This document shows, in pieces, positions 1 through 63,112 of a stretch of 64,000 nucleotides of DNA. The stretch spans positions 296,228-360,227 of the IMG/VR virus record IMGVR_UViG_3300009709_000002; one strand, given 5' to 3'. Each line of letters opens with the position of its first letter. Position 1 is the first letter of the stretch. The position numbers and the translations under genes are program-made. The notes beneath the pieces were generated by a model. The model worked only from the letters and a program-made list of their open reading frames with translations, did no database searches and was not told where the DNA came from. The stretch is from a virus. Its lineage: Duplodnaviria; Heunggongvirae; Uroviricota; Caudoviricetes.

Positions 1-256
1 TCTAAATTGACCATATCAACATTCCACTGATCAGACGTAAATGGACATTTAAATTCTACCGGGGTGCCGCCATGGCCAATTCTTGTAGATGCTACACGAA
101 TGTGACTATCATTCACTCCGTTTGTGATAACACCATCTTTAAATTCAACAGGTGTTTTGTAAGCTACACCAAGACTATGAACGTTATTTTCTTCAACAAA
201 TTTAGCCCATTCTTCTTGTGTGACGTTGGCTTCTTTCAGGTATTGTTTGAATCTCA
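1..256 (-). CDS. Family-A paralog, truncated by window edge (N-term MRFKQYLKEANVTQEEWAKF...)
   Basis: Minus-frame translation from ATG at 254-256 overlaps upstream stop (ATGA); N-terminus resembles other Family-A members. Confidence 0.6.
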
Positions 257-2599: not shown

Positions 2600-2642
2600 G
2601 GAATACTCCCAGATGATTATGGGAGTATTTATGAGTTAGATT

Positions 2643-5021: not shown

Positions 5022-5719
5022 AGCTTTGCGTACTCCTCAAATCCAGCATCTATTAACGCAGATTGAAGATCGACGATACTGTGACCAGCTTTGAAGCTGT
5101 CATCGATGACCTGGCACAACTTTTCATACTTTACCGATTCGTCATCGTCAAATGAATCTATACTGACGATGTCTAATTTTGGACATTTAGCGAATCTAAG
5201 AACACCACAACTGAGACTCACTCTATGAGATGCGCCGAGCGAAAATCCGCTTAGCGATTTTAACTTCTCGATTCCAGCTAAAGATTTAACTATCAAGTTG
5301 TTTGCATACTGGATTGTGATCATATTCGCGTCTGGGAATGTTTCTAACCCATCAAGCACGTGATCAGTTTTTAAAGTGATGCCTAGCAGTTTTTGTGGTG
5401 CTGGAAACATAGATGGAAATTCTATTTTCTTTCCAGGTAAGAACGTCACGGCCACATTTTCAGGATGCACGTACATCTGTTTCAGATTGCCGTGTTCATC
5501 TATCAGTGAGTGAATCGTCGGTGTCAGCTCGCCAGTTTCGTTATTCAGCCATCCACTTTCATGGTTTGGCTTAGACAAGAACGTCTCTTTATCTTCCGCG
5601 TGATAGTAGATATTATCGCTTGTTCCAGTGATCTTGAAGATGTAACAGTTGTCTACGATCCAGCTTTCAAGCTCATCAGCTTTACTTGTAGATTCTGTTA
5701 GTAGTTCTTTGAGCTTCAT
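5018..5719 (-). CDS. Family-A paralog
   Basis: C-term LQSALIDAGFEEYAKL. Confidence 0.8.
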   Translation of the reverse strand: MKLKELLTESTSKADELESWIVDNCYIFKITGTSDNIYYHAEDKETFLSKPNHESGWLNNETGELTPTIHSLIDEHGNLKQMYVHPENVAVTFLPGKKIEFPSMFPAPQKLLGITLKTDHVLDGLETFPDANMITIQYANNLIVKSLAGIEKLKSLSGFSLGASHRVSLSCGVLRFAKCPKLDIVSIDSFDDDESVKYEKLCQVIDDSFKAGHSIVDLQSALIDAGFEEYAKL

Positions 5720-6372
5720 AGGTGTGCAAAAGGCTCCATCCAGTCATACGAATCAAGCATTTCATTTTGGCAGGCGAGTACGTCTCTATCACCCTTGAGA
5801 TGCTTGTTGATGATCTTTGCTACTTCGTTATTCCACGGTAGAGTGACTTGCTTCAAGCGTGGACATTTCAGCAGACGAAGAACACCCATGCCTTTACGAG
5901 CCTTACCGTCTGGGCCAGGTCCTGCGTAGTACATGTAGAGCGTCTCAAGCTTATTGAGCTTTTCAATGCCTTTAAATGAATCGAACATGTAGTGATCTAG
6001 GCGAAGATCTTTGACGTTTGGTAGCTTCCCAAAATCATCGATCATATAGCCGCTTAGCACGACGTGCTCAACCTTTGATGAATAGCCTTTGACAGGGCAG
6101 TCATCAAATTTGGCTTTACTTCTGGTGCTCATGCTTAGGGAGTCATAACCCTTCTTTACTAGCAGCACACCGTCATAAACGTAGTAGCCATTTGGGTCAC
6201 TATGAACTTTACCGGTGTGGTTATCTTTCGGGTTCATAAGGCTTTGAGACACTGTTTTCGGTTTAGGCACCTGATGACCGTGCAAGAACGCAACCGTTCT
6301 ATTTTCTTTAAGCCATGCTTCAACAGCTTTATCTTCACTTGCTTCTTCTTTGAGTAACTCAATAACTTTCAT
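5716..6372 (-). CDS. Family-A paralog (start moved to internal Met MKVIELL; ATGA overlap at 6369-6372)
   Basis: ORF 5716..6420 overlaps upstream gene; the internal ATG restores the coupled-start pattern seen across the array. Confidence 0.7.
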   Translation of the reverse strand: MKVIELLKEEASEDKAVEAWLKENRTVAFLHGHQVPKPKTVSQSLMNPKDNHTGKVHSDPNGYYVYDGVLLVKKGYDSLSMSTRSKAKFDDCPVKGYSSKVEHVVLSGYMIDDFGKLPNVKDLRLDHYMFDSFKGIEKLNKLETLYMYYAGPGPDGKARKGMGVLRLLKCPRLKQVTLPWNNEVAKIINKHLKGDRDVLACQNEMLDSYDWMEPFAHL

Positions 6373-6962
6373 AGCTTCGCCCATTCTTCTAAGCCAGCAT
6401 CGATCAAATCTGTTTGACAATCGATGATGTCATGTTTTTCACAAAATTCATTCAGCGCACTAGTTAACTTCTGCCCTACGTCCATGTCATCGACAATGTC
6501 TGTTAGATCGATGTCTTCAATCTTCGACTTTACAAATGGAAGAACTCCAATCGGCTCTTGGTTTACTTTGAAGTCTTTGTTAATGACACAGAATGATGTA
6601 GATGATAAGTTCTCAGCGCCCTTAAAGCTCTTGAACGTGCACCCAAAGAATATTAGAGCGTGCTTCACGTTTGGGACTTGCTTCAAGCTTTCAAATTGCA
6701 AGTTGCTAAAGTCGATGCGATCAAATCCTTCTATCTCGCATGGAAAGCCATCAAAATCTTTCTTGTTATCTACGTTGTATGAGCCGACATCCATTCGCAC
6801 AATATTCGATGCGGCGGGTTTTAGCTTTCCACCTTCATAGATAATGTTTGCTCTGTCTGGAGATGAAGTAGCAGAGCTTATCCCAGTCACATTATACTTC
6901 TCAAGGAAGTCCGAAACGCTTTTCGGCATCTCGTCTTCCTTGAGAATTTCTTTTAGCTTCAT
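6369..6962 (-). CDS. Family-A paralog
   Basis: C-term CQTDLIDAGLEEWAKL. Confidence 0.8.
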   Translation of the reverse strand: MKLKEILKEDEMPKSVSDFLEKYNVTGISSATSSPDRANIIYEGGKLKPAASNIVRMDVGSYNVDNKKDFDGFPCEIEGFDRIDFSNLQFESLKQVPNVKHALIFFGCTFKSFKGAENLSSTSFCVINKDFKVNQEPIGVLPFVKSKIEDIDLTDIVDDMDVGQKLTSALNEFCEKHDIIDCQTDLIDAGLEEWAKL

Positions 6963-6999
6963 TTAGAAACTCCAATGTTTAGATGGAGTATTTATGAGC

Positions 7000-7653
7000 T
7001 TACAACTTCGCGTATTCGTCAAAACCTTTTTCAATCAGCTCATCCTGGCACTCAAGCATATTGTTTTCTTTGCCAATGTACTTCTTCACGATCTTGAAAG
7101 CTTCAATCCCCTTCATGTGCGCGTCGGTACCACGGCTACCGCCAGGTCCAAACTGCATCTCGAATTCACCTAGCTTGAGCAATGATAGCAGACCACAATC
7201 AAACGTGGTGCTATTTGAGAAATAGACGTACTCAGGTTTTATCGCAACTAGCTGCTTCAGAGATTTTACCGTGTACGGATGAAAGTATATGTCTTCATAG
7301 TGCAGCTTAGGAAGAACACTTTCATCCGTGAAGACTCCGCCATTCACGTTAATCGCGATAGGATCTTTCAGTTGAGGAAAATAGAATCGAAATTCATCAG
7401 CAGAGATAGGGCAGGCTGACAACGTAGATGAACCATTCTTTACTACGAAGTCAATACCAAAATATTGATAGTTAAGCTTGATCGGCTTACCAATCTGGAA
7501 TGATTTTTCAAGAACTCGCTTTGGATTAGGCAGATTTTTACCATTGCCAATGCGAATTCGAACGTGATCAAACCACCAGGCAATTTGTTCTTCAGAAAGA
7601 GCCATGGTGGAATCATCTTCCTCAGCTTCAAACAGAATTTCTTGTAACTTCAT
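7000..7653 (-). CDS. Family-A paralog
   Basis: C-term CQDELIEKGFDEYAKL. Confidence 0.8.
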   Translation of the reverse strand: MKLQEILFEAEEDDSTMALSEEQIAWWFDHVRIRIGNGKNLPNPKRVLEKSFQIGKPIKLNYQYFGIDFVVKNGSSTLSACPISADEFRFYFPQLKDPIAINVNGGVFTDESVLPKLHYEDIYFHPYTVKSLKQLVAIKPEYVYFSNSTTFDCGLLSLLKLGEFEMQFGPGGSRGTDAHMKGIEAFKIVKKYIGKENNMLECQDELIEKGFDEYAKL

Positions 7654-7693
7654 TAACTAACTCCAATTAAGATGGAGTATTTATGAGCTTACA

Positions 7694-8416
7694 TTACAAC
7701 TTCGCGAAATCCTCAAATCCAGCGTCGATCAGCTCGGTCTGCAGGTCAACCTTACTACGTTCTAGCACAGGCAGCTTCAAGTGCTTGTTGATGATATCAG
7801 CCATCTCATTATGCCGACCAATTCCATCTTCTTTCGAAAAGCTACTGAAAAACATCACCTCTTCCAGAATTGGTGACTTCAACAATTGAAGCACGCCCGG
7901 CTTATGCTCATTCTGATTGCAGTTATACAATCTCAACCTACGAACGTACGTCTTCTCGATCCCTTCAAAGGAGCGCACGTTGCAGTCCACCAGCGTTATG
8001 CCTTGGATGCGCTGGTTGAGCTGATCTAGAGTGGAGAACTTGTACTGGCACAGCGTCATCCACGGTGCTCCCCAGTTAATGTTTCTTGGAACTTCAAATT
8101 CCGTTCCTAAGTTCTTGGCGGTGATCTTGATCTCACTGCTCATGTGGTCGAACTGACGATTCGCCTGCATTCGCCACCAATCGACGAACTCTTTGGCCGG
8201 ATCGCTTTGGTGATTCCGAACTTCTACAGTATTCTTCATGGCGAACTCTCGCCATTGACGTTGGAACTCTAGCTCTTTTTCTTTCTCGTCCAGGAGCATC
8301 ATATCGTTCTTTCCTATGCTACCGCGAAGCGGCGGAAATTTTTCTAAGCACCTAAGAATGATTCTATCACCTTTCATGGTAGAAGTAAAGGATGCTTCAA
8401 CCTTTTCTCGCTTCAA
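7694..8416 (-). CDS. Family-A paralog
   Basis: C-term LQTELIDAGFEDFAKL. Confidence 0.8.
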   Translation of the reverse strand: MKREKVEASFTSTMKGDRIILRCLEKFPPLRGSIGKNDMMLLDEKEKELEFQRQWREFAMKNTVEVRNHQSDPAKEFVDWWRMQANRQFDHMSSEIKITAKNLGTEFEVPRNINWGAPWMTLCQYKFSTLDQLNQRIQGITLVDCNVRSFEGIEKTYVRRLRLYNCNQNEHKPGVLQLLKSPILEEVMFFSSFSKEDGIGRHNEMADIINKHLKLPVLERSKVDLQTELIDAGFEDFAKL

Positions 8417-8979
8417 AGTTCAGCATACTCATCGAGACCAGCATCGAGCATGGCAGATTGGCACGCGACGATGTCACGATCTTTCAAGTGCTTCCTAACG
8501 ATGCCTAACGCAAGCTCCAACCGCGTAGCATGAACGTTGGCGAAGATGATAGCTTCTAGGCGTGGCAGCTTCAGCAATCTCAGCAGGCCGCAATTGAAAT
8601 GGGCTCCATAGTTCAACCCAACAATATACAGCAGCTCTAGATTCTTTAAGCGATCAACGCCTTTTAGCGTTTCCACCTGCAGCCCATGAAGGCTGAGACT
8701 CTTCACCAAGGTAGGAAAGCCTTCCCAATCATTTAAGACAAGAAGCTTCGCCGGTCTGGCCATGATGTCGAGATGGCGTAGGTAAGCCTCACCGAAGGGC
8801 CAGTAGAAGGGATCTTCATTGTTCAGCTTAGGAGACACGATCAAATTATTGATGTGCATGCGAACGTTGTTCTTACTATCAAAGATCGCATCATACCGCT
8901 CGGGTGTTACCGTCGCTTTACCAGGCTCTTGGAGCTCATATTTGTCCAGCCAGTCTAATCCTTCGAGAGCTGTGGTCAT
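8413..8979 (-). CDS. Family-A paralog (GC-richer)
   Basis: C-term CQSAMLDAGLDEYAEL. Confidence 0.8.
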   Translation of the reverse strand: MTTALEGLDWLDKYELQEPGKATVTPERYDAIFDSKNNVRMHINNLIVSPKLNNEDPFYWPFGEAYLRHLDIMARPAKLLVLNDWEGFPTLVKSLSLHGLQVETLKGVDRLKNLELLYIVGLNYGAHFNCGLLRLLKLPRLEAIIFANVHATRLELALGIVRKHLKDRDIVACQSAMLDAGLDEYAEL

Positions 8980-9590
8980 AGCTTGGCATACTCCTCATAA
9001 CCCTTCTCGATGAGCTCCGACTGGCAGGCGATGATATCCCGCTCAGCACCATCTTCAGTCAGGTACGTTTCCACGATCCACAAGACGTCTTTTAGCCGAC
9101 GCTCTACGTTGACGGATCCACAGTTGATCCGGGTCAATTTCGGACACTTCAAGAGCCGAAGCAGCCCGCACGTTATGATTGTTCCATGCTGGTGCCCTTC
9201 AACGTAGAGCGAATGCATGTTTTCTAGCCTCTCCACGTTCTTGAACGTTTCGACGTGTAGCCCAGACAGATGGACGTAACGTACCGACGTTGGCAGCTCA
9301 TCCCAGCTCTTCAGCGCCAAACGCTGGTTAGTATTCTGCATGATGTTGAGAGACACTATATCCGCTTCACCGAACGGCCAGTAGAATCCACGAGGATTTC
9401 CGTAGAACTTGTTCGCCGTAATGTTCAGTTCACAGAAACCGTCGCGCAGCGTCTTCGTCGCATTGTCGAAGAGCTGATCAGCTCTAACCACAGTAATACC
9501 GGTGTCGATGTTGGTCGCCGCAACACCAAAATCAGACATGTACCGAACGATCGACATGTCAGTATCATTGTAGACTCCCGCCGCGCTCAT
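8976..9590 (-). CDS. Family-A paralog
   Basis: C-term CQSELIEKGYEEYAKL. Confidence 0.8.
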   Translation of the reverse strand: MSAAGVYNDTDMSIVRYMSDFGVAATNIDTGITVVRADQLFDNATKTLRDGFCELNITANKFYGNPRGFYWPFGEADIVSLNIMQNTNQRLALKSWDELPTSVRYVHLSGLHVETFKNVERLENMHSLYVEGHQHGTIITCGLLRLLKCPKLTRINCGSVNVERRLKDVLWIVETYLTEDGAERDIIACQSELIEKGYEEYAKL

Positions 9591-9599
9591 AGTAGCTCC

Positions 9600-10229
9600 T
9601 CACAGTTTCGCATATTCTTCTAAGCCTGAGTCGATCAGCTCCGACTGGCAGGCGACGATGTCCTTCAGCTCTAAATGCTTCTTCACGATAGATAAAGCAT
9701 CATGCTGTCTCTTATGCTCACCATCATAAGAAACTCCGATCATCCTCAGCTTAGGTAGCTTCAGCAACCGCAGCACTCCAAGCTCTTCCAACTGGAAAGG
9801 CCGACGCACCGCTCCGTTCAGAATCAGCTCCTCCAAGTTCTGCAACCGTTCAATTCCTTTGAGAGACGACACGATAGTTCCATGAAAGACCAGGCGGTGC
9901 AGGCTCTCAGGAAAATCACTCCACCCCTCCACACGAAACTGCCTAGGAATCATGCCGGTCTTAATGATAAACGAGATCAAGCCAACCGACATCACCTCCA
10001 GCTTCGCGCCGCCGAACGGCCACTCGAACCTTATAGGTTCATCTCCGTCTAGCTTCTGACAAATGTTCACCTTCACGACGTCATCCAACAGCCGAGCGCT
10101 CTTCACGTCAAAGATGTTCAGCAATGACTTCATCAGCTCGCCATTCTTCAGCACCGCGTTGACTTCATAGTCTCTTAGGTAGTCGGCCAGTACGAAAGGA
10201 TGGTTCATAAGCTCTCTTGTCACTTCCAT
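9600..10229 (-). CDS. Family-A paralog (first gene of the array)
   Basis: C-term CQSELIDSGLEEYAKL; followed upstream by a 700-bp noncoding region. Confidence 0.8.
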   Translation of the reverse strand: MEVTRELMNHPFVLADYLRDYEVNAVLKNGELMKSLLNIFDVKSARLLDDVVKVNICQKLDGDEPIRFEWPFGGAKLEVMSVGLISFIIKTGMIPRQFRVEGWSDFPESLHRLVFHGTIVSSLKGIERLQNLEELILNGAVRRPFQLEELGVLRLLKLPKLRMIGVSYDGEHKRQHDALSIVKKHLELKDIVACQSELIDSGLEEYAKL

Positions 10230-11426: not shown

Positions 11427-11454
11427 GATTTACTCCTTGGTTGACGTTAAGACT

Positions 11455-11484
11455 ATTATAACATCAACGGAGGAAGATGTAAAC
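11455..11484 (-). promoter_or_regulatory. T4-early-type sigma70 promoter (GTTTAC, 17 nt, TGnTATAAT)
   Basis: Minus strand reads GTTTACatcttcctccgttgaTGtTATAATagtc, followed by AAGGAGT RBS. Confidence 0.6.
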
Positions 11485-12846: not shown

Positions 12847-12878
12847 GTTCTACTCCGTTGTGTTGATCCAGTAAGAAT

Positions 12879-12908
12879 ATTGTAATACCAACGGAAGAAG
12901 AAGTAAAC
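12879..12908 (-). promoter_or_regulatory. T4-early-type promoter
   Basis: GTTTAC...TACAAT. Confidence 0.5.
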
Positions 12909-14501: not shown

Positions 14502-14554
14502 GTTGTTTCTCCTTGCTTCGGTTTGGTTGGATCGGTTTAGGTTACCGTAAGATA

Positions 14555-14584
14555 ATTCTAACATCATAGTTGAACGTTGTAAAC
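14555..14584 (-). promoter_or_regulatory. T4-early-type promoter
   Basis: GTTTACaacgttcaactatgaTGtTAGAAT. Confidence 0.55.
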
Positions 14585-14800: not shown

Positions 14801-14828
14801 GACGATCTCCGTCAGTTGATGTTAAGAC

Positions 14829-14860
14829 TATTCTATCCTACCTATAGGAGGAAGTAAAGG
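14829..14860 (-). promoter_or_regulatory. early-type promoter (CTTTAC...TAGAAT)
   Basis: Motif match. Confidence 0.4.
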
Positions 14861-16394: not shown

Positions 16395-16622
16395 TTATCT
16401 TGCCGATCTATCGCCCATGCTCTGCGCGCATAACTTCATGTAGTTATTCGCCGACCTCTGCTTGCTCAGCTTCAGCTCACGCTGCCCATCGGTCAACCCG
16501 CCAAACGGCTTACCCTCCGCAGACAACCTAGCCTGCAGCTCAACGATCTCCATCTCGGTCCAAGGTGCCGAGTGATCTACCGCCATCAGCTCTGCCATGC
16601 TTTTCCCTCCAAAGATGTTCAT
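16395..16622 (-). CDS. hypothetical small protein
   Basis: ORF track. Confidence 0.4.
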   Translation of the reverse strand: MNIFGGKSMAELMAVDHSAPWTEMEIVELQARLSAEGKPFGGLTDGQRELKLSKQRSANNYMKLCAQSMGDRSAR

Positions 16623-16710: not shown

Positions 16711-16926
16711 CTAACGACCGATGATCGCCTTGCAGAGGTCTAGGTAGCTCTGCTGACTCCTCATCTCCTTCAGCACTCGATTCTTCTCTCGAGTCGTCAT
16801 GCTGTCCCACAGCTTCCCGCTCGTTTCACTCAGCTCAGCCAGCATCTTGTTCTTCGCGGCCTCGATCTCTTCATCCGTATAGGGAACAAAGACATCCTTA
16901 GGCACGGTCTTCGGCTCAGCGTCCAT
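16711..16926 (-). CDS. hypothetical small protein
   Basis: Promoter and TATAGGGGAAGAG RBS upstream. Confidence 0.5.
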   Translation of the reverse strand: MDAEPKTVPKDVFVPYTDEEIEAAKNKMLAELSETSGKLWDSMTTREKNRVLKEMRSQQSYLDLCKAIIGR

Positions 16927-16960
16927 TCAACTCTTCCCCTATAGCTTATACACTAAGAAT

Positions 16961-16990
16961 ATTGTAACATATAGCTTAGAAGAAGTAAAC
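16961..16990 (-). promoter_or_regulatory. T4-early-type promoter
   Basis: GTTTACttcttctaagctataTGtTACAAT. Confidence 0.55.
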
Positions 16991-16999
16991 ACGTTCGCC

Positions 17000-17760
17000 G
17001 TGACACTTTGACCCAGGCTTGAGTGAGCGCTAGAGTTCGTTTGATGCCTTAGATCTGCGAGAGAGTTCTTCCGTGACGGTGAAAGTTCTTCCGAAAATAA
17101 AGTGTAACAGCGGTTTACTTTCTTTGAATAGTGTTATATGCTTTGCTTTGACCTCGGCCAACGTTGACTCGCTCTTGAGACACCGCTAGAGTTCGTTTGA
17201 TGCCTTAGTAGAATGAATATAGACGAGAGCTCTCTCATGTGCTATAGATGTATGAGAGGCTTATAGGTAGTAGAATGAGAATGTGAACCTGCTCTCTCGT
17301 GTATGATAGATGTATGAGAGGCTAATAGGTAGTAGAATGAGAATGGAGGAGAGCTCTCTCATGTGCTATAGATGTATGGGAGGCTATAAGGCGAGAATGC
17401 TTGTGTGCTATAGAAGCAGAGACCTATAGTGAGGTAGCATACCATGTAGGAGTAGTATGTAAGTGAGATTTTTCTCGCTCTCAGTCTATAGGGAGATGAG
17501 TAGCTGAGTGTATAGCTCTATCTGTATTAGATGAATGTATAAGTGAGTGAGCTATAGGGAGATAGTGATAAAATTTTCTTGAGGATACTATAGGAGTATG
17601 ACTTATAGCTGATTAGGATATTTCGGGTATTAAATGTCTCGCTTTTTGATGGTTTTGGGTGAGATTGTTTACTAGAATGGGAGGTGAGGGGTTTAGAATG
17701 TTGAATATGTCGTTCAACTAAGGCACTTTTGGGGTCTTTTGAGATGGGTGCTTGAGATAG
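17000..17760. repeat. noncoding repeat region: three tandem ~60-bp repeats plus a duplicated 23-bp GCTAGAGTTCGTTTGATGCCTTAG element
   Basis: Direct repeats at 17226-17285, 17290-17345 and 17350-17400; duplicates at 17031 and 17186. Confidence 0.6.
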
Positions 17761-17761
17761 G

Positions 17762-18325
17762 TCAGGAGGCCTTCTGCTTAGTAGCCTCTATCGTGGAGGT
17801 GTGAGCGGGTATAGAAACGTCAAGAATGTTGGTTGTAGAGTCATCTTGCTCTATAGGTCTAGTCTTCCTATAGCTAGATGGGAGTACTTCTTGCGCGGGG
17901 AGTGAGTCATAGAGCTCGTTCAGCTCGGCCTTTAGCTTCTTCGCTCTATTGTCATGTCGCTCGGCGTACATCAGCGCCGTTTGAGCGGTGAGCTTACGGC
18001 CGTCTAGCGGAGCGATGAGCAGCCCGTCTACAGGTGGGGAGAAGTAAACTTGGAGCCAGTAGTCACGGTGGCTCAGGGAGATCTTCAGGCGGGATTGTAG
18101 CTCGGCGAGCTTCTCTTGTCTCATAAGGTCGTTTAGCCTCTCGGTGAATCGGATCGCCTGCTGCTCATAGGTCTCGATGTAGTGGGTGTATCTCTCGATC
18201 GCATGCGGATCGGTAGAGTCTTTAAGCCGCTTCGTAAAGATCCTAACACAAGCTTGAGCGCGGGAGATCACTCTCTCGAGTTTCTCTTTTTTGGTGGGTG
18301 GATCGATGAAAGGTCTGGGGCTCAT
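17762..18325 (-). CDS. Family-B protein (C-term LPSSYRKTRPIEQ)
   Basis: Conserved C-terminal motif; variable N-terminal body. Confidence 0.7.
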   Translation of the reverse strand: MSPRPFIDPPTKKEKLERVISRAQACVRIFTKRLKDSTDPHAIERYTHYIETYEQQAIRFTERLNDLMRQEKLAELQSRLKISLSHRDYWLQVYFSPPVDGLLIAPLDGRKLTAQTALMYAERHDNRAKKLKAELNELYDSLPAQEVLPSSYRKTRPIEQDDSTTNILDVSIPAHTSTIEATKQKAS

Positions 18326-18608
18326 CTTGCTCTATAGGTCTGGTCTTGTTGAAGCTGGTAGGGAGTACTTCAGCTGGGTCTTGGTCGGCTTGAAATTTGG
18401 CGAGCAGCCAGCGCAGCTGACGTTGAAAGTACTCGAGATCTTGCCTGTACTGAGCGATAGTTCTATTATCTGACTCGATAACGTGAGGTCGATCTTCACT
18501 ATCACGCAGCTCCGTCATTCTCCGAATGAGCATTTCGGTAGTTCGAATGCGGCGCTCGAGGCGCTCTTGCTCTGACTTCTGTGTGTGCAGGTAGCTCATC
18601 TGAGGCAT
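18243..18608 (-). CDS. Family-B protein (EVLPTSFNKTRPIEQ)
   Basis: Motif; tail overlaps next gene. Confidence 0.7.
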   Translation of the reverse strand: MPQMSYLHTQKSEQERLERRIRTTEMLIRRMTELRDSEDRPHVIESDNRTIAQYRQDLEYFQRQLRWLLAKFQADQDPAEVLPTSFNKTRPIEQDEPQTFHRSTHQKRETRESDLPRSSLC

Positions 18609-18855
18609 CTTCTATAGGTCTAGCTCGGAAGCTGGTGGGTAGTACTTCAATCTCTTCCTTCTGCAGGTACTCTTTGACCTTGACTAGACGGTCGCGCACC
18701 GCGGTGTAGCCGTCGACTCCACCCTGCCAATAGTCTCTAGTTACTTGGTGAACAGCTCTATCACGGGCTCGAGCGCAGTAATCGATGCTGAAGTCCTGGT
18801 GGCCGATGCACTCGTCAATGTTCTCTAAGCTTAGGGTGATTGTTCGGTTTGACAT
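18502..18855 (-). CDS. Family-B protein (EVLPTSFRARPIED)
   Basis: Motif. Confidence 0.7.
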   Translation of the reverse strand: MSNRTITLSLENIDECIGHQDFSIDYCARARDRAVHQVTRDYWQGGVDGYTAVRDRLVKVKEYLQKEEIEVLPTSFRARPIEDASDELPAHTEVRARAPRAPHSNYRNAHSENDGAA

Positions 18856-19174
18856 GAATGATCTTCTGCTGGTAAAGAGCTTCCTGCTCTTCGGTAGGTC
18901 TGGGGCGGCCGAAGCTGGTCGGGAAGAGCTCTTTGAAGGGCTTGTTGACCTCGAGGTAGCGCGCTTTTTCCTTTCGCCAGTAGGTAATCTTAGCCTGATA
19001 TATCTCTACATACTTGAGCACGTTCTCGACGGTGTGCTTGCGGCCAGCGGTGTCGTAAAGGAGACCGTCTTCCGGCTTAGTGTCGGAGAAGTAGACGTCA
19101 TACCAGTAGCGTAAGCTAACGGATTCATACTCGATTATAGAGTCATAGCGTTCGATTACTTTCGGATCGATCAT
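18815..19174 (-). CDS. Family-B protein (ELFPTSFGRPRPTEEQ)
   Basis: Motif. Confidence 0.7.
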   Translation of the reverse strand: MIDPKVIERYDSIIEYESVSLRYWYDVYFSDTKPEDGLLYDTAGRKHTVENVLKYVEIYQAKITYWRKEKARYLEVNKPFKELFPTSFGRPRPTEEQEALYQQKIIHVKPNNHPKLREH

Positions 19175-19487
19175 GCGGAGCTCGCGGTAAGGTTAGTTGG
19201 ATAGTAGCTTCTTCCTGCTCGATCGGTCGTGAGCGCTTAAAGCTGGTCGGGAGTACTTCAGCCACGTGCTGTCGTTCAGCTTCAAGCAGGAGCTCTAAGG
19301 TGTCTTTGCGCTCGGCGATAACTCCCTCGAGGTAGGATTCCATCGACTTGAAGTTCATGACCAGCCAACCTACCGACTCAAGCTCCTTCTCTTCATAACT
19401 CAGCCGAGTCTCGATAGTGCCGTTTAGCATCTTCTCGTACTCTTTGATCGACGTTTCGAGGTAAGCTATTTCTTCCGGGTAGTTCAT
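19143..19487 (-). CDS. Family-B protein (EVLPTSFKRSRPIEQ)
   Basis: Motif. Confidence 0.7.
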   Translation of the reverse strand: MNYPEEIAYLETSIKEYEKMLNGTIETRLSYEEKELESVGWLVMNFKSMESYLEGVIAERKDTLELLLEAERQHVAEVLPTSFKRSRPIEQEEATIQLTLPRAPHDRSESNRTL

Positions 19488-19830
19488 GGGCTTGGTCCTC
19501 TAAGAGACTGGTAGCTTCTAGCGGTCTGGTCTTCTGGAAGCTTGTTGGTAGCACTTCAATCGGTTCTGCTTTGAGAGCTTCTATCTTTCTCTGGTGATTT
19601 TCATTCAGCTCGTCGATGTAGCGGCTGTAGTACTCAATACACGAGATCGCATGGTTGAGGTAACCGTCATCAAAGTCATTCATCTCTCGCTGCAGCTCCA
19701 GCTGAAGGTCTCTTGTTTTTATCCAAGCTCTACGGCACCGGTTCAGCTCATCATATCGTTTGCTGTAATCCAGGTGCGCCCGCTCGTTGATGGTTTCCCA
19801 CATCGCTTGCATCAGATTGTTCATGGTCAT
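19393..19830 (-). CDS. Family-B protein (EVLPTSFQKTRPLE)
   Basis: Motif. Confidence 0.7.
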   Translation of the reverse strand: MTMNNLMQAMWETINERAHLDYSKRYDELNRCRRAWIKTRDLQLELQREMNDFDDGYLNHAISCIEYYSRYIDELNENHQRKIEALKAEPIEVLPTSFQKTRPLEATSLLEDQAHELPGRNSLPRNVDQRVREDAKRHYRDSAEL

Positions 19831-20278
19831 AGGCGTTAAGCTGTCTGCTTTTATTTAGCGAGTTGGGTAACACTTCAACGGTCGCTTCACCTCGTTTTTC
19901 TGCGCAGTTTTTGATGTAGATCTCTGCATCATGCAGAACAGCGAGGTAATGCTTGATCTTCGCCTGGCACAGGTCGATGTGCGCCTGGTCATTAGACATC
20001 TCAGCTTCACCAAGGTGAGCATACCAGCTGGCCAACCAATACGTAGCGGCATTGACCTTCGCTTTATACATACGTTGTTCACGTCGAGCGACTTGGCCGT
20101 GTTCACACTCGACTAGAGCATCAAGAAAGGCTTTCCGTTCCGGTGACTCGCCGAACTCCAGCGCTTCGGCAGTCGGCTTCCGTCCACGTATACTCTGAAG
20201 AATCTCTTCCGATCTGTTCAGCATGATTCGCCTTGTGAGTAAATTTGTTGGGTAGCAGCTCGACATGCCCTCGTTCAC
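19751..20278 (-). CDS. Family-B protein (EVLPNSLNKSRQLN)
   Basis: Motif, divergent. Confidence 0.65.
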   Translation of the reverse strand: MNEGMSSCYPTNLLTRRIMLNRSEEILQSIRGRKPTAEALEFGESPERKAFLDALVECEHGQVARREQRMYKAKVNAATYWLASWYAHLGEAEMSNDQAHIDLCQAKIKHYLAVLHDAEIYIKNCAEKRGEATVEVLPNSLNKSRQLNAYDHEQSDASDVGNHQRAGAPGLQQTI

Positions 20279-20498
20279 ACATCTCTATCATCGAAACGAA
20301 CTTAGCCATGCGCTGCTCGTACTCTATTACAGACGCTAAGATGTTACTCTGTTGCTCAAACGTCAGTTTGACGTTGTGATCCCAGTGATCATCAAGCTGG
20401 CAGAGTAGCCTTTCTCTCGCTCGGCATAAAGATTCGTGGCATCGACGCAAGAAGGTTAGCGTGTCTTCCTGGCTGCTCTGTTCTATCGTCAGCATCAA
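20121..20498 (-). CDS. Family-B protein (ELLPNKFTHKANHAEQ)
   Basis: Motif, divergent. Confidence 0.6.
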   Translation of the reverse strand: MMLTIEQSSQEDTLTFLRRCHESLCRARERLLCQLDDHWDHNVKLTFEQQSNILASVIEYEQRMAKFVSMIEMCERGHVELLPNKFTHKANHAEQIGRDSSEYTWTEADCRSAGVRRVTGTESLS

Positions 20499-20850
20499 TC
20501 ACCCGCTTAGGTTTGTTGGGTAACACTTCTACTACTTGATTCTCGATCGCTGCAAGCTCTTCTATTCTCGCTTTTAGCCAATCGACATTATGCTGCATCA
20601 TCTTCTTAACGATCTTTATTCGTCTAACCAACACAGCTTCCTTAGCAGCATTGTACTCAGGATTATCGCCGGTGCGAGCGAGTCGAATTTGCTCATCGAT
20701 CATTTTATCAAGCTTGCGCCAATCTTGAAACAAAGCGTCGCTCGTCACCACGTACACTTCATAGTGCTCAGCTTTAACTCGTCCGCATGCAGTGATCACG
20801 ATCGACTGATCGTATGGGTCGTAGTTGGTGTACGTGCGTAGTGTTTTCAT
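20392..20850 (-). CDS. Family-B protein (EVLPNKPKRVIDAD)
   Basis: Motif. Confidence 0.65.
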   Translation of the reverse strand: MKTLRTYTNYDPYDQSIVITACGRVKAEHYEVYVVTSDALFQDWRKLDKMIDEQIRLARTGDNPEYNAAKEAVLVRRIKIVKKMMQHNVDWLKARIEELAAIENQVVEVLPNKPKRVIDADDRTEQPGRHANLLASMPRIFMPSERKATLPA

Positions 20851-21190
20851 CTAATTGCCTCTGCTTCTTGAATGAGGTAGGAAGCACTTCAACTGGTGGG
20901 GTAGTGAATGCAGCGATCTGCTCTTTCAATACATCAAGAGCTCTTTCCATCGCAGCATCATGCTCGGTGATTTTCTCTATCGCCTCAGTGTGAAGCTCTT
21001 CATTGTACTTGTCACGCTCTTCATACCACAATCGAACCTGCTCTTCTTCAATTCTTTCCCACTTACGACGTGCCGACCAGAGCTCACCGTGACTTCTTAT
21101 GTACACCATGTATGACGGAACATCCACCTGGCCCCAGACCGTGTTGCACCATGCGACCGGCGTGTTGGTATGAAGGTTCGGTTGATTCAT
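20774..21190 (-). CDS. Family-B protein (EVLPTSFKKQRQLDE)
   Basis: Motif. Confidence 0.7.
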   Translation of the reverse strand: MNQPNLHTNTPVAWCNTVWGQVDVPSYMVYIRSHGELWSARRKWERIEEEQVRLWYEERDKYNEELHTEAIEKITEHDAAMERALDVLKEQIAAFTTPPVEVLPTSFKKQRQLDENTTHVHQLRPIRSVDRDHCMRTS

Positions 21191-21470
21191 GGCTATCCTC
21201 GTGTGGTCTTAGTTTAAATGAAGTAGGAAGCACTTCCGCTACATCTTCGGCATCTTGAAGTTTACTCATGAGCTCGCGCTCTACTTCTCTATTCTTCTCT
21301 ATGAGCTCACTGTAATACTCGATGCCGATCTCGTGCGTCTCGTAAGACAGTTCTTGCTCCAACGCGTTGATGATAGCTCTCGTTATCGTCAATTGATTCT
21401 TCAATTCCGGCGCTGTCATCTTTGTTCTTCTTAAAGCTCGTTGGAAGCACTTCAGGGTGTTGATGTTCAT
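21084..21470 (-). CDS. Family-B protein (EVLPTSFKLRPHED)
   Basis: Motif. Confidence 0.7.
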   Translation of the reverse strand: MNINTLKCFQRALRRTKMTAPELKNQLTITRAIINALEQELSYETHEIGIEYYSELIEKNREVERELMSKLQDAEDVAEVLPTSFKLRPHEDSHESTEPSYQHAGRMVQHGLGPGGCSVIHGVHKKSR

Positions 21471-21774
21471 GGAGTTCTATGACCTTCTTAGCAGCTTGAA
21501 TCGACATCGCTTGGTCTGTCAAAAACTCTGGCTTATAGTGCACAAACAGCCGAATGTAGTCCTTGGCATCTTCGATCGACACCATCAGGTGAGCGTCATC
21601 ATCTCGACCATAAAGTGACAGCATCGTGTACATCAGGTCTCTGAAGTGAACGAACTCGTCCGTCGTCTCATCAGCTGGATTGTTCATGAAAATCCTTGTT
21701 TGCTGCTGACAAGTTGCCAAGATAAACTTCTCGTGCGGTGTTAGTGAGTGAGCACTGCATGAAGATGTCTTCAT
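21307..21774 (-). CDS. Family-B protein (EVLPTSFKKNKDD)
   Basis: Motif. Confidence 0.7.
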   Translation of the reverse strand: MKTSSCSAHSLTPHEKFILATCQQQTRIFMNNPADETTDEFVHFRDLMYTMLSLYGRDDDAHLMVSIEDAKDYIRLFVHYKPEFLTDQAMSIQAAKKVIELHEHQHPEVLPTSFKKNKDDSAGIEESIDDNESYHQRVGARTVLRDARDRHRVLQ

Positions 21775-22111
21775 TCGTTCTTTTCAACTCTCTTTGTTTC
21801 TTCACGAAAGAGCTTGGTAGCATCTCCGTGAATTCTTCATCTCGCTTAGCAAGCTCTATTCTACGTTTCGCTACTTGAAACGTAGTTGAGTTAACGCTTG
21901 CCTCTAACGCTTCGTGCCGATTCTTGAAGAACAAATCGATGTAGAGCTCCGCCTGCTCAGGAGTTATCTCCATGAAGTGCTCATACGTCATGTAACCTTG
22001 CATCATCACGTGGAACAGCTGTTGATAGCGAGGATCTTTTTCTCCAAACGTTTTCGTCTGGAGAATGTCTTTGTCACTCGATAGATGCAGCTGCGGCCAT
22101 GATTGTGTCAT
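21671..22111 (-). CDS. Family-B protein (EMLPSSFVKKQRELK)
   Basis: Motif. Confidence 0.7.
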   Translation of the reverse strand: MTQSWPQLHLSSDKDILQTKTFGEKDPRYQQLFHVMMQGYMTYEHFMEITPEQAELYIDLFFKNRHEALEASVNSTTFQVAKRRIELAKRDEEFTEMLPSSFVKKQRELKRTNEDIFMQCSLTNTAREVYLGNLSAANKDFHEQSS

Positions 22112-22571
22112 GATAAGTCACGATTTCCTGATAAAGATCACCAATATTGCTGTGGATCTTCAAGTTAGGGTCCACCAGGTGAGCTTGAACTTGCACGTCT
22201 AACAGTCGCTCATAACCTGGGTCACATCCAACAAAAATCTTCTTTCCCGAGAGCTGCGATTGAGCGAGCCAATAACCAAACTCAAACAATGTGATCGGAC
22301 AAAGCGTCTCTTTCGGAAACCAGAACGAAATGCAGGTAGCTGCTTTCAGGTACTGGTGCTCCCAGATGATCTGCTGAATCGAGATTTCATGCCGCGAAGT
22401 ATCAAAGTCATTCCGACGTGGATTGATGACCAGGAAGTTCGTCGCCTTCATCAGCAGTTCAGCAAATATCTTTTGCCAGTCGGGGCAGTTTGAGATGCCA
22501 CCGGCTAAAAAGATCGAGAGTAGGTTATGTTCTGGCGTGCGCTCATTAGGCGCTTCGAGATAGTTGTTCAT
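22074..22571 (-). CDS. nucleoside 2-deoxyribosyltransferase-like protein
   Basis: SIFLAGGISNCPDWQ and FLVINP segments resemble the Rossmann-like deoxyribosyltransferase fold; embedded in the Family-B array. Confidence 0.45.
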   Translation of the reverse strand: MNNYLEAPNERTPEHNLLSIFLAGGISNCPDWQKIFAELLMKATNFLVINPRRNDFDTSRHEISIQQIIWEHQYLKAATCISFWFPKETLCPITLFEFGYWLAQSQLSGKKIFVGCDPGYERLLDVQVQAHLVDPNLKIHSNIGDLYQEIVTYHDTIMAAAASIE

Positions 22572-23079
22572 TAGTTAGAAGGGTTGGAGAATTATGCTTA
22601 TGTTGTGCTGTTACATCGACTGCATCATCAATCATCCGCTTCTTATTTAGGAAGGACGAAGGAAGGCATTCTTGCTCTGGAGGCGGCGGCTCAGACATCT
22701 CAACTCCGAGGATCATGTCAGCCATCAGCTTAGGCATCATGCGCTTGATAATCGGTAGCACAACTGGCCCACCAGGAAGCGTTCCCACTAAAGAGCCCTT
22801 GCCACGCGGATTCGGGAAGATGAAATTTTCTGTAGACGACGTTGGATCATACGGAATGAACGCTTCAACTTCATCCTCTGAAAAGCCACCAACATTCGTC
22901 TGATAGACTCGTCCATTTTTGTTCGGCTGACCATCATTTCGCAAGATCATGACATAGCCATCGCGGTTTTCAATCCGGCTTGAGTAGCCTTCATCGCTCA
23001 TTCGTTGCTCCATTGTCTTGTCGATTGAAGATCGTAAATCTACCAGCATTTTCCTGAAGCGTTCCAGAAACTTCTCCAT
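22546..23079 (-). CDS. Family-B protein (ECLPSSFLNKKRMIDD)
   Basis: Motif; start may be an internal Met because of the overlap. Confidence 0.65.
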   Translation of the reverse strand: MEKFLERFRKMLVDLRSSIDKTMEQRMSDEGYSSRIENRDGYVMILRNDGQPNKNGRVYQTNVGGFSEDEVEAFIPYDPTSSTENFIFPNPRGKGSLVGTLPGGPVVLPIIKRMMPKLMADMILGVEMSEPPPPEQECLPSSFLNKKRMIDDAVDVTAQHKHNSPTLLTNEQLSRSA

Positions 23080-23890
23080 CTTCTATCACTCGTTTCTTGC
23101 TAAAAGTTGTTGGAAGCACTTCAACAGGTTCTTCTATCTCAATACCAAAATCTTCACGAAGTTCTTCTAGCTCTTCGACAAGATTAAACGGCGTGTTCAA
23201 AATCTCATTCAGCTCAGCTTCAAGGTTGATGCCGTATTGCAGCTGTAGCTGAATTTGATCTTCATCTGAAATTTCTTTCATACGCCAGAAGTCCATGCCT
23301 GGATTGATGATGCGATTCGGAACTGGCAGTGGTTTGACGGTGATGTCGACATTCAGCTTGCCGTTGTCAATATCTTCCTGCGAGTTGTTCGATTCGTCAC
23401 AAGTGACTTTGTAATCTGTTAGCATAAGCGGAATGTAAGGTGCGTAATAGCAACCAATGTCGGCGGTCGTTGTGCCTCTCAGTTTCACTGGTGGAATTTC
23501 ATCGGCTGGTTTATCCAATGACGAGTGAACGATCATCTCACCAGGTTTGAAACCACCAGTCTTTCCGTATTCAGAGTTCAGATCAATCTTGCGAGTTAGA
23601 ATTTCTCGCTTAATGTCTTCAATATACTTCGCAGTTTCTTCTGTAGTAAAATTGCGCTCGACATCTACGTAGAACACTCGTCTATCAGGTTCGCGAGCTG
23701 TCTTATAGGTGATGACGTTCGATTCAGCGTGCATCGTCTTTGGATAGGGTTTGTTGTGAGTGACTTTTATGGATTGAGTGTCGCCGTCGAAGTCCATAAT
23801 CGGACTTAGATTCCGCCAGTACATCGAATTGATGTCATAGTCAGGGACAAACGCTTTTCTACTTTCGTCACTCACAACTGCACCCCGCAA
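22991..23890 (-). CDS. Family-B protein, long member (EVLPTTFSKKRVIEDGE); first gene of the array
   Basis: Motif; 299 aa. Confidence 0.7.
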   Translation of the reverse strand: MRGAVVSDESRKAFVPDYDINSMYWRNLSPIMDFDGDTQSIKVTHNKPYPKTMHAESNVITYKTAREPDRRVFYVDVERNFTTEETAKYIEDIKREILTRKIDLNSEYGKTGGFKPGEMIVHSSLDKPADEIPPVKLRGTTTADIGCYYAPYIPLMLTDYKVTCDESNNSQEDIDNGKLNVDITVKPLPVPNRIINPGMDFWRMKEISDEDQIQLQLQYGINLEAELNEILNTPFNLVEELEELREDFGIEIEEPVEVLPTTFSKKRVIEDGEVSGTLQENAGRFTIFNRQDNGATNER

Positions 23891-23902: not shown

Positions 23903-24628
23903 TTACTCTTTTACGTAAGCGGTGCCGAACACCGTGTCTTTCAGCTCGACGTTGGTGAGCATGTCGACCGCCGGAATCACACAGAAATCAGGCTGCTCTA
24001 CCACCGGAAACGCCGTTGGAATGATGATCGTAGGACGCTCTCGGATAACCGACTGATTGCAAAACAGCATAGCCAGCTGTTGGTGCGCATAAGAGTACGA
24101 GTACACGATGCGGTGGTGATAGATACCACCGTCGAGTAACTGCGCCTCGAGCGTCTCACCAACACCGCCAAACTGTTGCGCTAACTTTTCAATCGCAGCG
24201 CCATGTGTCTTCCTGACTTCAAACTCATACAGGTAGACATAACGAGTTTCCCACGTGACCATGTCATGCGTGGCACCATAAAAGACGGCACGACCAGGAA
24301 CGATGTTCTTCCGCCAGTGAGTCAAGCTGCTCTTCAGCAGCTCAGCTACACCAGCTAACCAGCTTTCTTCAATTTCGGTGTATGGCGCACGTTCTCGTTC
24401 TTCCAGAGGCAATGCGTAATATGTCTTTACTGCATCGAAATTGTTGTCTGCGTGAGCAGTTGCAAGCTGATACTCAATCAGGTCAGTCGTCAAGTATTTG
24501 AAGTTTCCGCTTGTCGACTGAATTCGTTCCAATAGATAGGCCAGTGCTTCTGTGAAGGTTGTAGGTTTGTCCATCTTCTTCCTTAATAGATTCGTATGCT
24601 CGAACTGGTTTTCCAGGAATGACTTCAC
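23903..24628 (-). CDS. hypothetical protein (downstream part; possible frameshift partner)
   Basis: Long ORF with no separate plausible start clear of the overlap. Confidence 0.5.
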   Translation of the reverse strand: MKSFLENQFEHTNLLRKKMDKPTTFTEALAYLLERIQSTSGNFKYLTTDLIEYQLATAHADNNFDAVKTYYALPLEERERAPYTEIEESWLAGVAELLKSSLTHWRKNIVPGRAVFYGATHDMVTWETRYVYLYEFEVRKTHGAAIEKLAQQFGGVGETLEAQLLDGGIYHHRIVYSYSYAHQQLAMLFCNQSVIRERPTIIIPTAFPVVEQPDFCVIPAVDMLTNVELKDTVFGTAYVKE

Positions 24629-25064
24629 ATTTCTCGGGTCCGGAAACCAGACTATCTACTATAGGTGCAGCCCCTTCTAGCGCTGGAATTGAGCCAATGA
24701 TGGACTCAAGTTCAGCCACAATGTTTGCTTTTTGCCGTTCACTTTCATGCAGCACTAAATGCATGAGATCAGGCGTCATGGTCAGCAACTCAGCCATATT
24801 GTCAGCTTGGCCGGCGATCGCCATCATCTTTTGATAATTTGGTCCACTTTTAAACGAATGAGCCAAATCATTTCGATCAATTTCGACGCCTTGCGCCCAC
24901 AGCACAGATTGAACAGACTCAACACACATGGAGAGCGTATTGATGTAGAATGGAGTCATCTTGGAATTCGGCATGAAAAAGTAGTCGCTGAAAACATCGA
25001 GTACAATATCGCTTCCGTTGGCCATCAGTTGATCTCTCGCCATAAATGCACTGGGCCAACGCAT
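24483..25064 (-). CDS. hypothetical protein (upstream part of a possibly frameshifted gene)
   Basis: Overlaps the next ORF by 146 nt in a different frame. Confidence 0.5.
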   Translation of the reverse strand: MRWPSAFMARDQLMANGSDIVLDVFSDYFFMPNSKMTPFYINTLSMCVESVQSVLWAQGVEIDRNDLAHSFKSGPNYQKMMAIAGQADNMAELLTMTPDLMHLVLHESERQKANIVAELESIIGSIPALEGAAPIVDSLVSGPEKCEVIPGKPVRAYESIKEEDGQTYNLHRSTGLSIGTNSVDKRKLQILDD

Positions 25065-25330
25065 CTCGTACTCAAGATGGTTAGCCCATATTCGTGGAGT
25101 TAAAGGGCAGTCTGTTACAAATTGACACTATAAAACCGTTAAGATCATTATAATACAAGACTGTTACGATGTAAATCAATTTGTATTACTTATCATCGTT
25201 GGTCTGATCTTTATTTTTCTCATCGAAGATTTTGATCATCACGTAAGACATACGCCAAATCTTATCAATTGCTCGCTGCTCTAACGCTGCCTTGCCTGCA
25301 AACTTACCAGGCAGATATTCGCGAAACTCT

Positions 25331-25525
25331 TCAGGTTCTTTTTGCTTCTCTGTCATGGCTGTATCCTTTCATCGCGCTGATCACAGCGTCTCGAAATGAC
25401 TTGCCTTTGAAGGTGAGGTCCATTGAGTGATTGACGTGTACAAAGTGCTCACCACGGCTGTTGATACCATGAAAGCAGTTGTGCACCTCATAAAAATCAA
25501 GAAGATCAGTGTCACTGTATTTCAC
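25331..25525 (-). CDS. hypothetical small protein
   Basis: ORF track. Confidence 0.4.
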   Translation of the reverse strand: MKYSDTDLLDFYEVHNCFHGINSRGEHFVHVNHSMDLTFKGKSFRDAVISAMKGYSHDREAKRT

Positions 25526-63082: not shown

Positions 63083-63112
63083 ATTATAACATCAACAACC
63101 ACTAAAGTAAAC
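63083..63112 (-). promoter_or_regulatory. T4-early-type promoter
   Basis: GTTTAC...TGtTATAAT. Confidence 0.55.

Follow-up and report, generated by a model that had tools for sequence, protein, structure and literature searches.

Why do fifteen small phage proteins, encoded side by side, carry the same short peptide near their C-terminus? The question is raised by a stretch of 64,000 nucleotides (nt) from a virus of the class Caudoviricetes (IMG/VR record IMGVR_UViG_3300009709_000002, positions 296,228 to 360,227), called the window below. On its minus strand, positions 17762-23890 hold 16 back-to-back open reading frames (ORFs), named g01 (22991-23890) to g16 (17762-18325). A 14-residue motif, E-V-L-P-(T/S/N)-S-F-x-K-x-R-P-(I/L)-(E/D), is present in 15 of the 16; g03 is the exception. 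The reading favored here, with a probability of roughly 0.5, is that of a clade-private, tandemly expanded and probably early operon of small, mostly acidic proteins: a "handle plus exchangeable body" system with a length-dependent spacer.

A Peptide Common to Neighboring Genes

A profile built from the 15 motif copies scores each of them at 24.2-36.9 bits, against 7.9 bits for the next-best site in a six-frame translation of all 64 kb. The near-identical C-terminal peptide noticed on 15 minus-strand genes in the initial annotation, which was made from the sequence without database searches, is thus confirmed. All 15 proteins have the motif 38-54 residues away from the C-terminus. Its end varies, as (P/Q/V/M)-(I/L/H/T)-(E/D), with Glu or Asp at the aligned end position in 12 of the 15.

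The motif is conserved as a peptide and is under purifying selection. Its serine codons switch between AGC and TCN and its leucine codons between CTN and TTA; over EVLPTSF, the information at codon positions 1, 2 and 3 is 1.43, 1.49 and 0.56 bits. Between the window and L001, a 93%-identical contig described below, 22 of the changes in the motif are synonymous and 7 non-synonymous. These three observations uphold the earlier proposal of conservation at the peptide level. Frame-independent conservation of the nucleotides, named at the time as what could overturn it, was checked for and does not do so. The one qualification concerns the final motif residues (I/L-E-x-D), whose nucleotides are common to the start region of the next gene: the motif end is therefore under dual constraint.

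A Frame Staircase and Its Tails

The genes of the array are arranged as a staircase, which had been missed before. Taken modulo 3, the start coordinates cycle 1,0,2,1,0,2 and so on over all 15 junctions, so that each gene is in the +1 frame of its predecessor. Motif-to-motif distances are all 1 mod 3, and the overlaps, 26-113 nt long, are all 2 mod 3. Minus-strand ORF overlaps of more than 10 nt number 22 in the window; 21 are in +1, and 16 lie in the array. At 10 of 14 junctions, the next ATG is found 34-52 nt past the motif start, i.e., at the motif end. We know of no described array with at least 15 consecutive same-phase long overlaps, each at a conserved peptide.

The tail that follows the motif is the out-of-frame translation of the neighbor's N-terminal coding region. 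It had been described as a variable acidic tail of 15-40 amino acids (aa) overlapping the start of the next gene. The overlap stands, but the length is 24-40 aa (standard deviation 5.0), and only the first ~10 residues are acidic, the distal part being rich in Arg, His and Ser, a composition explained by the out-of-frame reading of the neighbor's start. The last member, g16, keeps a 28-aa tail, and after its motif only a vestigial ORF of 18 codons is found. A +1-frame ATG persists after the motifs of both g02 (22630-22570) and g16 (17848-17790), opening an ORF of only 6 or 18 codons, which points to the loss of a downstream cassette, or to its replacement by the deoxyribosyltransferase gene g03.

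When the amino-acid sequences of the downstream proteins are held fixed, the probability that all tails reach 24 residues is 1e-8, and 4e-10 for the range of 24-40. The spread of tail lengths is tighter than in 99.95% of null arrays. The tail frame itself evolves nearly neutrally (18 synonymous and 46 non-synonymous changes), and the synonymous rate of the downstream gene drops in the overlaps from 0.039 to 0.024 per nt: it is the downstream frame that is more constrained. Selection thus appears to act on the length and openness of the tail, not on its sequence. The stop positions of the tails are almost all conserved in the two related contigs.

Reassigned stop codons were rejected as an explanation of the long tails, since none of the 30 transfer RNAs (tRNAs) of the window is a suppressor. 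Programmed +1 frameshifting or fusion of neighbors was rejected as well: there is no conserved slippery site, and a +1 stop precedes the next ATG at only 6-7 junctions. An RNA-level explanation was discarded too, since the junctions neither fold unusually (z between -2.0 and +1.45) nor match a known family in Rfam.

Bodies That Carry the Motif

In shuffle-calibrated Smith-Waterman comparisons of the protein bodies, z exceeds 3 in nine of the 105 pairs. The linked bodies are g13-g15-g16 and g04-g05-g06-g11-g07-g08; g07 is related to g08 (E 5.6e-5, z 7.9) and to g11, and g13 to g16 (E 6e-5, z 9.4). The junctions of g14, g15 and g16 are identical at the nucleotide level. With the motif cut out, leave-one-out profiles do not work for most members. 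The bodies of g01, g02, g09, g10, g12 and g14 are unlinked to these members, which are taken below as helical hairpins, with the sole exception of a marginal g01-g13 pair (z 3.3). The earlier description of the bodies as unrelated is thus too uniform. Because several members are divergent paralogues, both "unrelated bodies" and "effector" were overstated.

A tandem family of 19 members, ~200 aa each, in the same window served as a control. Its mean z is 8.9 at 22-68% identity, and its genes meet at 4-nt ATGA junctions. Since that family is recognizable over its full length, the motif array is not merely another ordinary expansion.

The one member that was modeled is g15. In its AlphaFold2 model, residues 2-37 and 41-76 form helices with a predicted local distance difference test (pLDDT) score above 90, i.e., a helical hairpin, and the motif and tail score 55-65. 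The motif is thus predicted to lie in a flexible segment after the folded hairpin. A fold search with this hairpin returned generic helical hairpins only (E > 0.1).

The body of g01 is of another kind. Its residues 48-100 align with a conserved segment of the T4 portal protein gp20 (...Y.-.R.PDRRV.YVD...), and residues ~100-195 resemble the C-terminal region of a tail sheath. Homologues of g01 were not found outside the clade, its single-sequence structure model is unusable (pLDDT 32), and in a comparison with g02 only the motif aligns. A portal- or sheath-like fragment carrying the motif could be a decoy or an assembly regulator. The gene looks like a chimera of structural-protein fragments, yet it is under purifying selection and lies in an early-type operon. 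Elsewhere in the window, a 420-aa ORF at 40688-41950 has a weak, uninformative sheath-domain patch.

These comparisons support the presence of the motif on three or more kinds of body that show no detectable homology to one another, namely the helical hairpins, g02 and g01. Most array bodies are acidic. For the small members and the two upstream genes u1 and u2 (see below), nothing significant was found in Pfam, PHROGs, NCBIfam or PADLOC, and family-library scans of the array gave no toxin or immunity signatures. The idea of a common signal on diverse domains, put forward in the initial annotation, is borne out insofar as one short peptide sits on different bodies (given its conservation as a peptide, its predicted flexible setting in g15 and the three body types); the T4 specifics attached to that idea are not.

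Relatives and Cassette Exchange

Among about 15 billion proteins, the family is confined to one clade, that of an uncultivated giant phage known from metagenomic contigs only. Profile searches of 5.8 billion proteins, with a full-length alignment and with a motif alignment, and an exhaustive search of 1.84 billion cluster representatives retrieved only this clade: the database matches, 5 and 12 in number, all come from this phage (a 360,227-bp contig from JGI) or from two Logan contigs, L001 and L002. The search of proteomes with the motif, which had been proposed together with the motif itself, therefore ended within the clade. The motif was not found in any other protein, including those structural proteins of the 360-kb contig that are present in databases. 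Megablast against phages returned no distant relatives, and a degenerate DNA pattern had no match in viral contigs.

Both L001 and L002 are collinear with the window, at 91-93% identity, and all indels inside the array are multiples of 3. The pooled ratio of non-synonymous to synonymous change (pN/pS) is 0.20; it is at most 0.26 in 15 of the 16 genes and reaches 1.15 in g14, on only 10 changes. With such low ratios, the array genes are working genes.

Cassettes are gained or lost by crossover within the motif coding core, as shown by L002. This contig has one extra member, an 83-aa body with its own motif, whose breakpoints lie inside the motif core GTTGAAGTNTTACCCAAC. A g10 body is fused at that point to a motif end of the g08 type, the new gene carries one of the g10 type, and the g08 motif end lies upstream of the extra cassette. 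The exchanged unit extends from one core to the next, and its period is 1 mod 3, so that no reading frame can be broken by a crossover of this kind. In both contigs (L001, ~7770-8020; L002, ~330-580), the g02 body has an in-frame insertion of 255 nt (85 aa) relative to window position 22768; bodies can thus gain or lose whole segments while the motif is kept.

Promoter, Upstream Genes and Array Members

The promoter, u1, u2 and the array genes described in this section are all on the minus strand. An early-type sigma70-like promoter, TTTACA-17-TATAAT, lies at 25147-25175, upstream of the first family member; it is an 11/12 consensus match and not a mapped transcription start. Near-consensus sites of this type are found 26 times on the minus strand of the window (e.g., at 63111, 58641, 43993, 29970, 25175 and 11483) and 5 times on the plus strand. 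Inside the array, there is no promoter site of 10/12 or better and no minus-strand terminator-like site, and no late-type TATAAATA box occurs near it. In L001, genes upstream of the array match the NT5C, T4 30.3-like and R2K families, which suggests a nucleotide-metabolism context. Judged from consensus matches only, the locus is probably one early operon of about 18 genes. Several of the promoters sit in a longer conserved repeat of ~44 nt (11440-11483, 12864-12907, 14540-14583, 14815-14858 and 16946-16989), reminiscent of the mobile early-promoter cassettes of T4-type phages.

A usable Shine-Dalgarno sequence is absent in about half of the array genes, and the duplex energies with the anti-Shine-Dalgarno sequence are weaker than the mean of -5.3 kcal/mol of the other genes. 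A good Shine-Dalgarno sequence (GAGGA) for g07 lies within the post-motif region of g06.

Two genes between the promoter and g01, not noticed earlier, look like degenerate family members from their sequence, u2 probably and u1 possibly. The first gene after the promoter, u2 (24483-25064, 193 aa), carries EVIPGKPVRAYESIKEED, which resembles the variant motif of g08, and a tail of 33 aa; it falls below the threshold of the motif profile. It leads to the next ATG in the +1 frame through GAAGATGGA, the same junction as between g01 and g02, with an overlap of 92 nt. In u1 (23903-24574, 223 aa), which does not overlap g01, there is a weak resemblance to the motif, a decayed IIIPTAF version (IIIPTAFPVVEQPD) with a tail of 27 aa. 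Just upstream of the promoter, a 56-aa ORF (25186-25356) has EYLPGKFAGKAALEQ near its N-terminus, resembling the g09 variant, followed by ~29 residues; its score of 3.7 bits is not significant. It may be a family remnant or a mini-member ending the preceding transcription unit.

The array proper starts with g01, 299 aa long from a TTG or 277 aa from the ATG at 23824 (motif at 23081-23122, 29.6 bits; tail 29 aa; pN/pS 0.26). It overlaps g02 (22546-23079, 177 aa) by 89 nt in +1; the g02 motif, ECLPSSFLNKKRMI, is at 22630-22671 (29.3 bits) and is followed by 27 aa. The motif-free g03 (22074-22571) is the nucleoside 2-deoxyribosyltransferase-like gene already recognized inside the array (PF15891, E 2e-19); it stays in step with the +1 staircase and overlaps its neighbors by 26 and 38 nt. 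In g04 (21671-22111, 146 aa), the motif EMLPSSFVKKQREL at 21785-21826 scores 26.3 bits, the tail has 37 aa and pN/pS is 0.08. An overlap of 104 nt links it to g05 (21307-21774, 155 aa; motif at 21412-21453, 29.0 bits; tail 34 aa). The likely start of g06 (21084-21470) is the ATG at 21419, which gives a product of 111 aa (motif at 21195-21236, 27.6 bits; tail 36 aa). The next gene, g07 (20774-21190, 138 aa), has its motif at 20849-20890 (34.6 bits) and a tail of 24 aa. Variant motifs occur in g08 (20392-20850, 152 aa; EVLPNKPKRVID at 20488-20529, 24.2 bits) and in g09 (20121-20498, 124 aa from the ATG at 20495; ELLPNKFTHKANHAEQ at 20220-20261, 25.6 bits; tail 32 aa; pN/pS 0.04).

Further along, g10 (19751-20278) encodes 157 aa from the ATG at 20224 and carries EVLPNSLNKSRQLN at 19835-19876 (25.8 bits). 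The tail is 40 aa in g11 (19393-19830, 145 aa; motif at 19516-19557, 32.8 bits) and 24 aa in g12 (19143-19487, 114 aa; motif at 19218-19259, 35.3 bits). The motif of g13 (18815-19174, 119 aa), ELFPTSFGRPRPTE at 18890-18931, scores 27.3 bits, and that of g14 (18502-18855, 117 aa; tail 34 aa), at 18607-18648, scores 28.6 bits. The highest score, 36.9 bits, is that of g15 (18243-18608, 121 aa; motif at 18330-18371). The last member, g16, is 187 aa long, with the motif at 17849-17890 (29.9 bits).

A stretch of ~830 nt poor in ORFs lies just downstream of g16. It contains three tandem 62-nt repeats at 17206-17385, each with a GAGAGCTCTC palindrome and with no match in Rfam, and a further pair of 48-nt repeats at 17005-17052 and 17161-17208. 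The repeats downstream of g16 could be the operon end, a regulatory element or an origin-like element. Downstream of them, two adjacent small genes (16395-16622 and 16711-16926; 75 and 71 aa) are apparent paralogues with a common C-terminal ...(Y)(L/M)(D/K)LC(K/A)....

Other Features of the Window

The 19-member family used as a control occupies 254-10229 and 50160-52023 and has no match in PHROGs. Its members have a conserved C-terminal ...(F/L)EE(F/Y/W)AKL, the coding sequence of which also supplies the ribosome-binding site of the next gene (TTTGAGGAGTATGCCAAGCTATGA). Thirty tRNA genes, without a suppressor, are found on the minus strand at 35500-58189, many of them duplicated (e.g., three Thr, three Val, four Asn and three Phe), and a tRNA nucleotidyltransferase gene lies at 61263-62444. 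A 695-aa protein without assigned function is encoded at 46399-48486 (phrog_1735, E 3.5e-253; 544 phage records matched). It is ~52% identical to proteins of phiCbK-like Caulobacter phages and of the Ralstonia phage phiRSL1. Its gene is in a local block of 56% guanine-cytosine content, adjoining a block of 37% at 50-52 kb.

Interpretation of the Locus

If the favored reading is right, many bodies would engage a single partner, a host hub or a phage machine, and the motif would be the short linear site at which they dock or are processed. The tail, sequence-independent but at least 24 residues long, would be a spacer or unstructured extension needed for the interaction of the motif. One possibility is a two-part degradation or adaptor signal read by an AAA+ protease, with the tail as its engagement region, comparable to SspB and its flexible C-terminal ClpX-binding peptide. 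Most bodies would be target-binding helical hairpins. A handle acting early is favored because of the promoter context, the acidic bodies and the absence of the motif from other proteins.

Such a common handle would make the locus a natural library of ~17 small binders or effectors tied to one partner, and once that partner is found, an entire group of "dark matter" genes of giant phages would have a function. The architecture is unusual in itself: at least 15 consecutive same-phase long overlaps, a tail apparently selected for length rather than sequence, and frame-safe cassette exchange. It offers a concrete case, open to testing, of small early phage proteins being diversified behind a constant interface. 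The peptide plus spacer is a portable module, possibly useful for tagging as a degradation, docking or capsid-loading signal.

Several points weigh against this reading. A stricter per-gene shuffle of synonymous codons leaves a combined P of only ~0.02 for the tails. The case for selection on the tails comes mainly from the statistics of paralogues, which are not fully independent, and from three genomes at 91-93% identity. No recognizable protease tag is found at the tail ends, and the motif profile, run against the sequences in the PDB, matched no known docking peptide in solved structures. The docking handle is inferred from the anatomy of the proteins. That the bodies are mostly helical hairpins is extrapolated from the g15 model, composition and weak coiled-coil matches. 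Finally, weaker promoter-like sites (9/12) are present inside the array, and the promoter was called by consensus only.

One rival is an ordinary, fast-evolving paralogue family, in which the motif is the best-conserved structural or oligomerization segment, and staircase and tails are by-products inherited through tandem duplication of an overlapping gene. The common junction architecture points to common descent (+1 at 15/15 junctions, ATG at 34-52 nt in 10/14), nine members are linked by weak body similarities, g14, g15 and g16 have identical junctions, and tandem paralogue arrays are common in jumbo phages, one of 19 members being present in this very window. However, that array is similar over its full length (mean z 8.9), and here only the motif is conserved; the portal- and sheath-like body of g01 is unlike the hairpins, the motif is predicted to be flexible rather than packed, and a minimum tail length is kept beyond chance. 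This explanation is unlikely but has to be taken seriously. A further, doubtful rival is loading into the capsid. In this case, the motif would target the proteins to the prohead, its (I/L)-(E/D) would be the site of the maturation protease, the tail would be removed as a propeptide, and the bodies would be injected with the DNA as anti-defense proteins. Diverse bodies with only a short peptide conserved are the pattern of the T-even internal proteins (PMC3012670). Cleavage by the prohead proteases of T4 and of giant phages takes place after Glu (PMC5694885), and Glu or Asp closes the motif in 12 of its 15 copies. Furthermore, encapsulins have C-terminal targeting peptides for HK97-fold shells (PMC10960027), g01 has portal- and sheath-like segments, and bodies of 8-17 kDa suit packaged proteins. 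Against this, the tag is C-terminal and internal rather than an N-terminal propeptide of 10-20 residues, three positions ahead of the putative cleavage site stands mostly Pro, Gln or Val and not L/I or A/S/G, and the motif, not at the extreme C-terminus, has no GSLxIGSLK match. The promoter ahead of the array is of the early type, a late-type box is not found in its vicinity, the array bodies are mostly acidic, and their motif occurs in no other protein, including the structural proteins of the 360-kb contig present in databases. A packaging or injection role of the array proteins is thus possible, with the odds clearly against it.

Explanations at the level of translation or of the nucleotides fare worse. 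A translational device, in which the nascent peptide and the long +1 overlaps control the next gene (by pausing, coupling or occlusion of a weak ribosome-binding site), or in which programmed +1 frameshifting fuses neighbors or ends at a +1 stop before the next ATG, is highly improbable. In its favor, a usable Shine-Dalgarno sequence is missing from about half of the array genes, the next ATG is preceded at 6-7 junctions by a +1-frame stop only 0-2 codons away, and the distance from the EVLPTSF core to the stop, 31-47 residues, is about the length of the ribosomal exit tunnel. Nevertheless, no conserved slippery sequence is seen at motifs or tail stops, the +1-frame stop is absent or 4-10 codons off at the remaining junctions, the junction RNAs are not unusually structured, the 30 tRNAs of the window include no suppressor, and every gene has an ATG of its own and is individually subject to purifying selection. 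The same core-to-stop distance allows a related, co-translational reading, also very unlikely if slightly less so: the motif would capture a partner or the nascent N-terminal helix of the neighbor, and the staircase would be an assembly line, or a neighbor-coupled expression chain, of ~17 proteins. With that spacing, the motif would emerge only while the ribosome is still over the first ~30 codons of the next gene. A length-dependent, sequence-independent tail and weak ribosome-binding sites are compatible with it. A nucleotide-level element (a recombination site, promoter or RNA structure) with incidental peptide conservation would account for the crossover inside the motif coding core and for the overlap of the last motif codons with the next start region. 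It is largely refuted and essentially excluded by the strong three-base periodicity, the synonymous switching that includes AGC/TCN serine codons and the 22 synonymous against 7 non-synonymous changes, together with the lack of a promoter or terminator consensus, of an Rfam match and of excess RNA structure.

Similarities to Described Systems

Cleavage in T4 follows the consensus L/I-X-E. The T4 targeting sequence is an N-terminal propeptide of 10-20 residues, the proteases of T4, phiKZ and SPN3US cut after Glu at X-E motifs, and the consensus of giant-phage proteases is A/S/G-X-E (PMC5694885). The array motif shows no consistent fit to the prohead-protease consensus, its -3 residue being Pro in 7 of 15 copies. 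The T-even internal proteins (IPI, IPII, IPIII and Alt) are, like the array products, small and diverse phage proteins from a variable locus with only a short peptide in common (PMC3012670). In the array, however, the peptide is near the C-terminus with an obligatory tail of 24-40 residues, the genes come after an early-type promoter and overlap in a +1 staircase, the products are mostly acidic, and sequence homology is lacking. When the initial annotation likened the array to these proteins, its logic of diverse cargo with only the tag conserved was sound (nine of 105 body pairs with z > 3; motif alone between g01 and g02). The analogy itself, i.e., targeting with cleavage, fails on tag position and cleavage consensus; the early promoter, the acidic bodies and a motif found in no other protein also speak against it.

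Family 1 encapsulins take up diverse cargo, two-helix ferritin-like hairpins among it, by short peptides that sit on a flexible segment toward the C-terminus of the cargo and dock inside an HK97-fold shell (PMC10960027). Encapsulin-type hairpin cargo was among the weak, non-significant fold matches to g15. Unlike these peptides, which are at the extreme C-terminus and GSLxIGSLK-like (PMC10960027), the array motif is internal, is followed by 24-40 residues and has a different sequence. Encapsulin cargo among PDB sequences did not match the motif profile, and no capsid or shell family was found among the window ORFs scanned in or near the array. SspB has a folded target-binding body, tethered to a common machine by its flexible C-terminal peptide, the ClpX-binding XB tail (PMC8138137); the predicted anatomy of g15 fits this. 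Sequence similarity to SspB is absent, the array has one peptide on ~17 bodies in one operon, and binding would be by analogy only.

The hyperplastic regions of T4-type phages are shuffled through promoter early stem-loops (PeSLs), and there too recombination at repeats changes gene content, as with the extra cassette of L002. PeSLs are non-coding and consist of a strong sigma70-like promoter and a stem-loop terminator, whereas the array repeat is a translated peptide without promoter, terminator or RNA structure, and its exchange is frame-safe. In polymorphic toxin loci, a short conserved peptide (VENN in CdiA) also bounds recombining variable modules, with orphan cassettes; the module follows the motif in the same frame, and the toxin has a cognate immunity gene. 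The next module of the array, on the other hand, has its own ATG in another frame, and toxin or immunity signatures are missing. With the ordinary tandem paralogue arrays of jumbo phages, the array has in common a lineage-specific tandem expansion of small genes in one orientation. Compared with the 19-member family, which has full-length similarity and 4-nt ATGA junctions, it keeps only the motif, at +1 overlaps of 26-113 nt. The family, whose homologues are all within its clade, is, in functional terms, best filed under the theme of diverse small phage proteins on a shared short tag.

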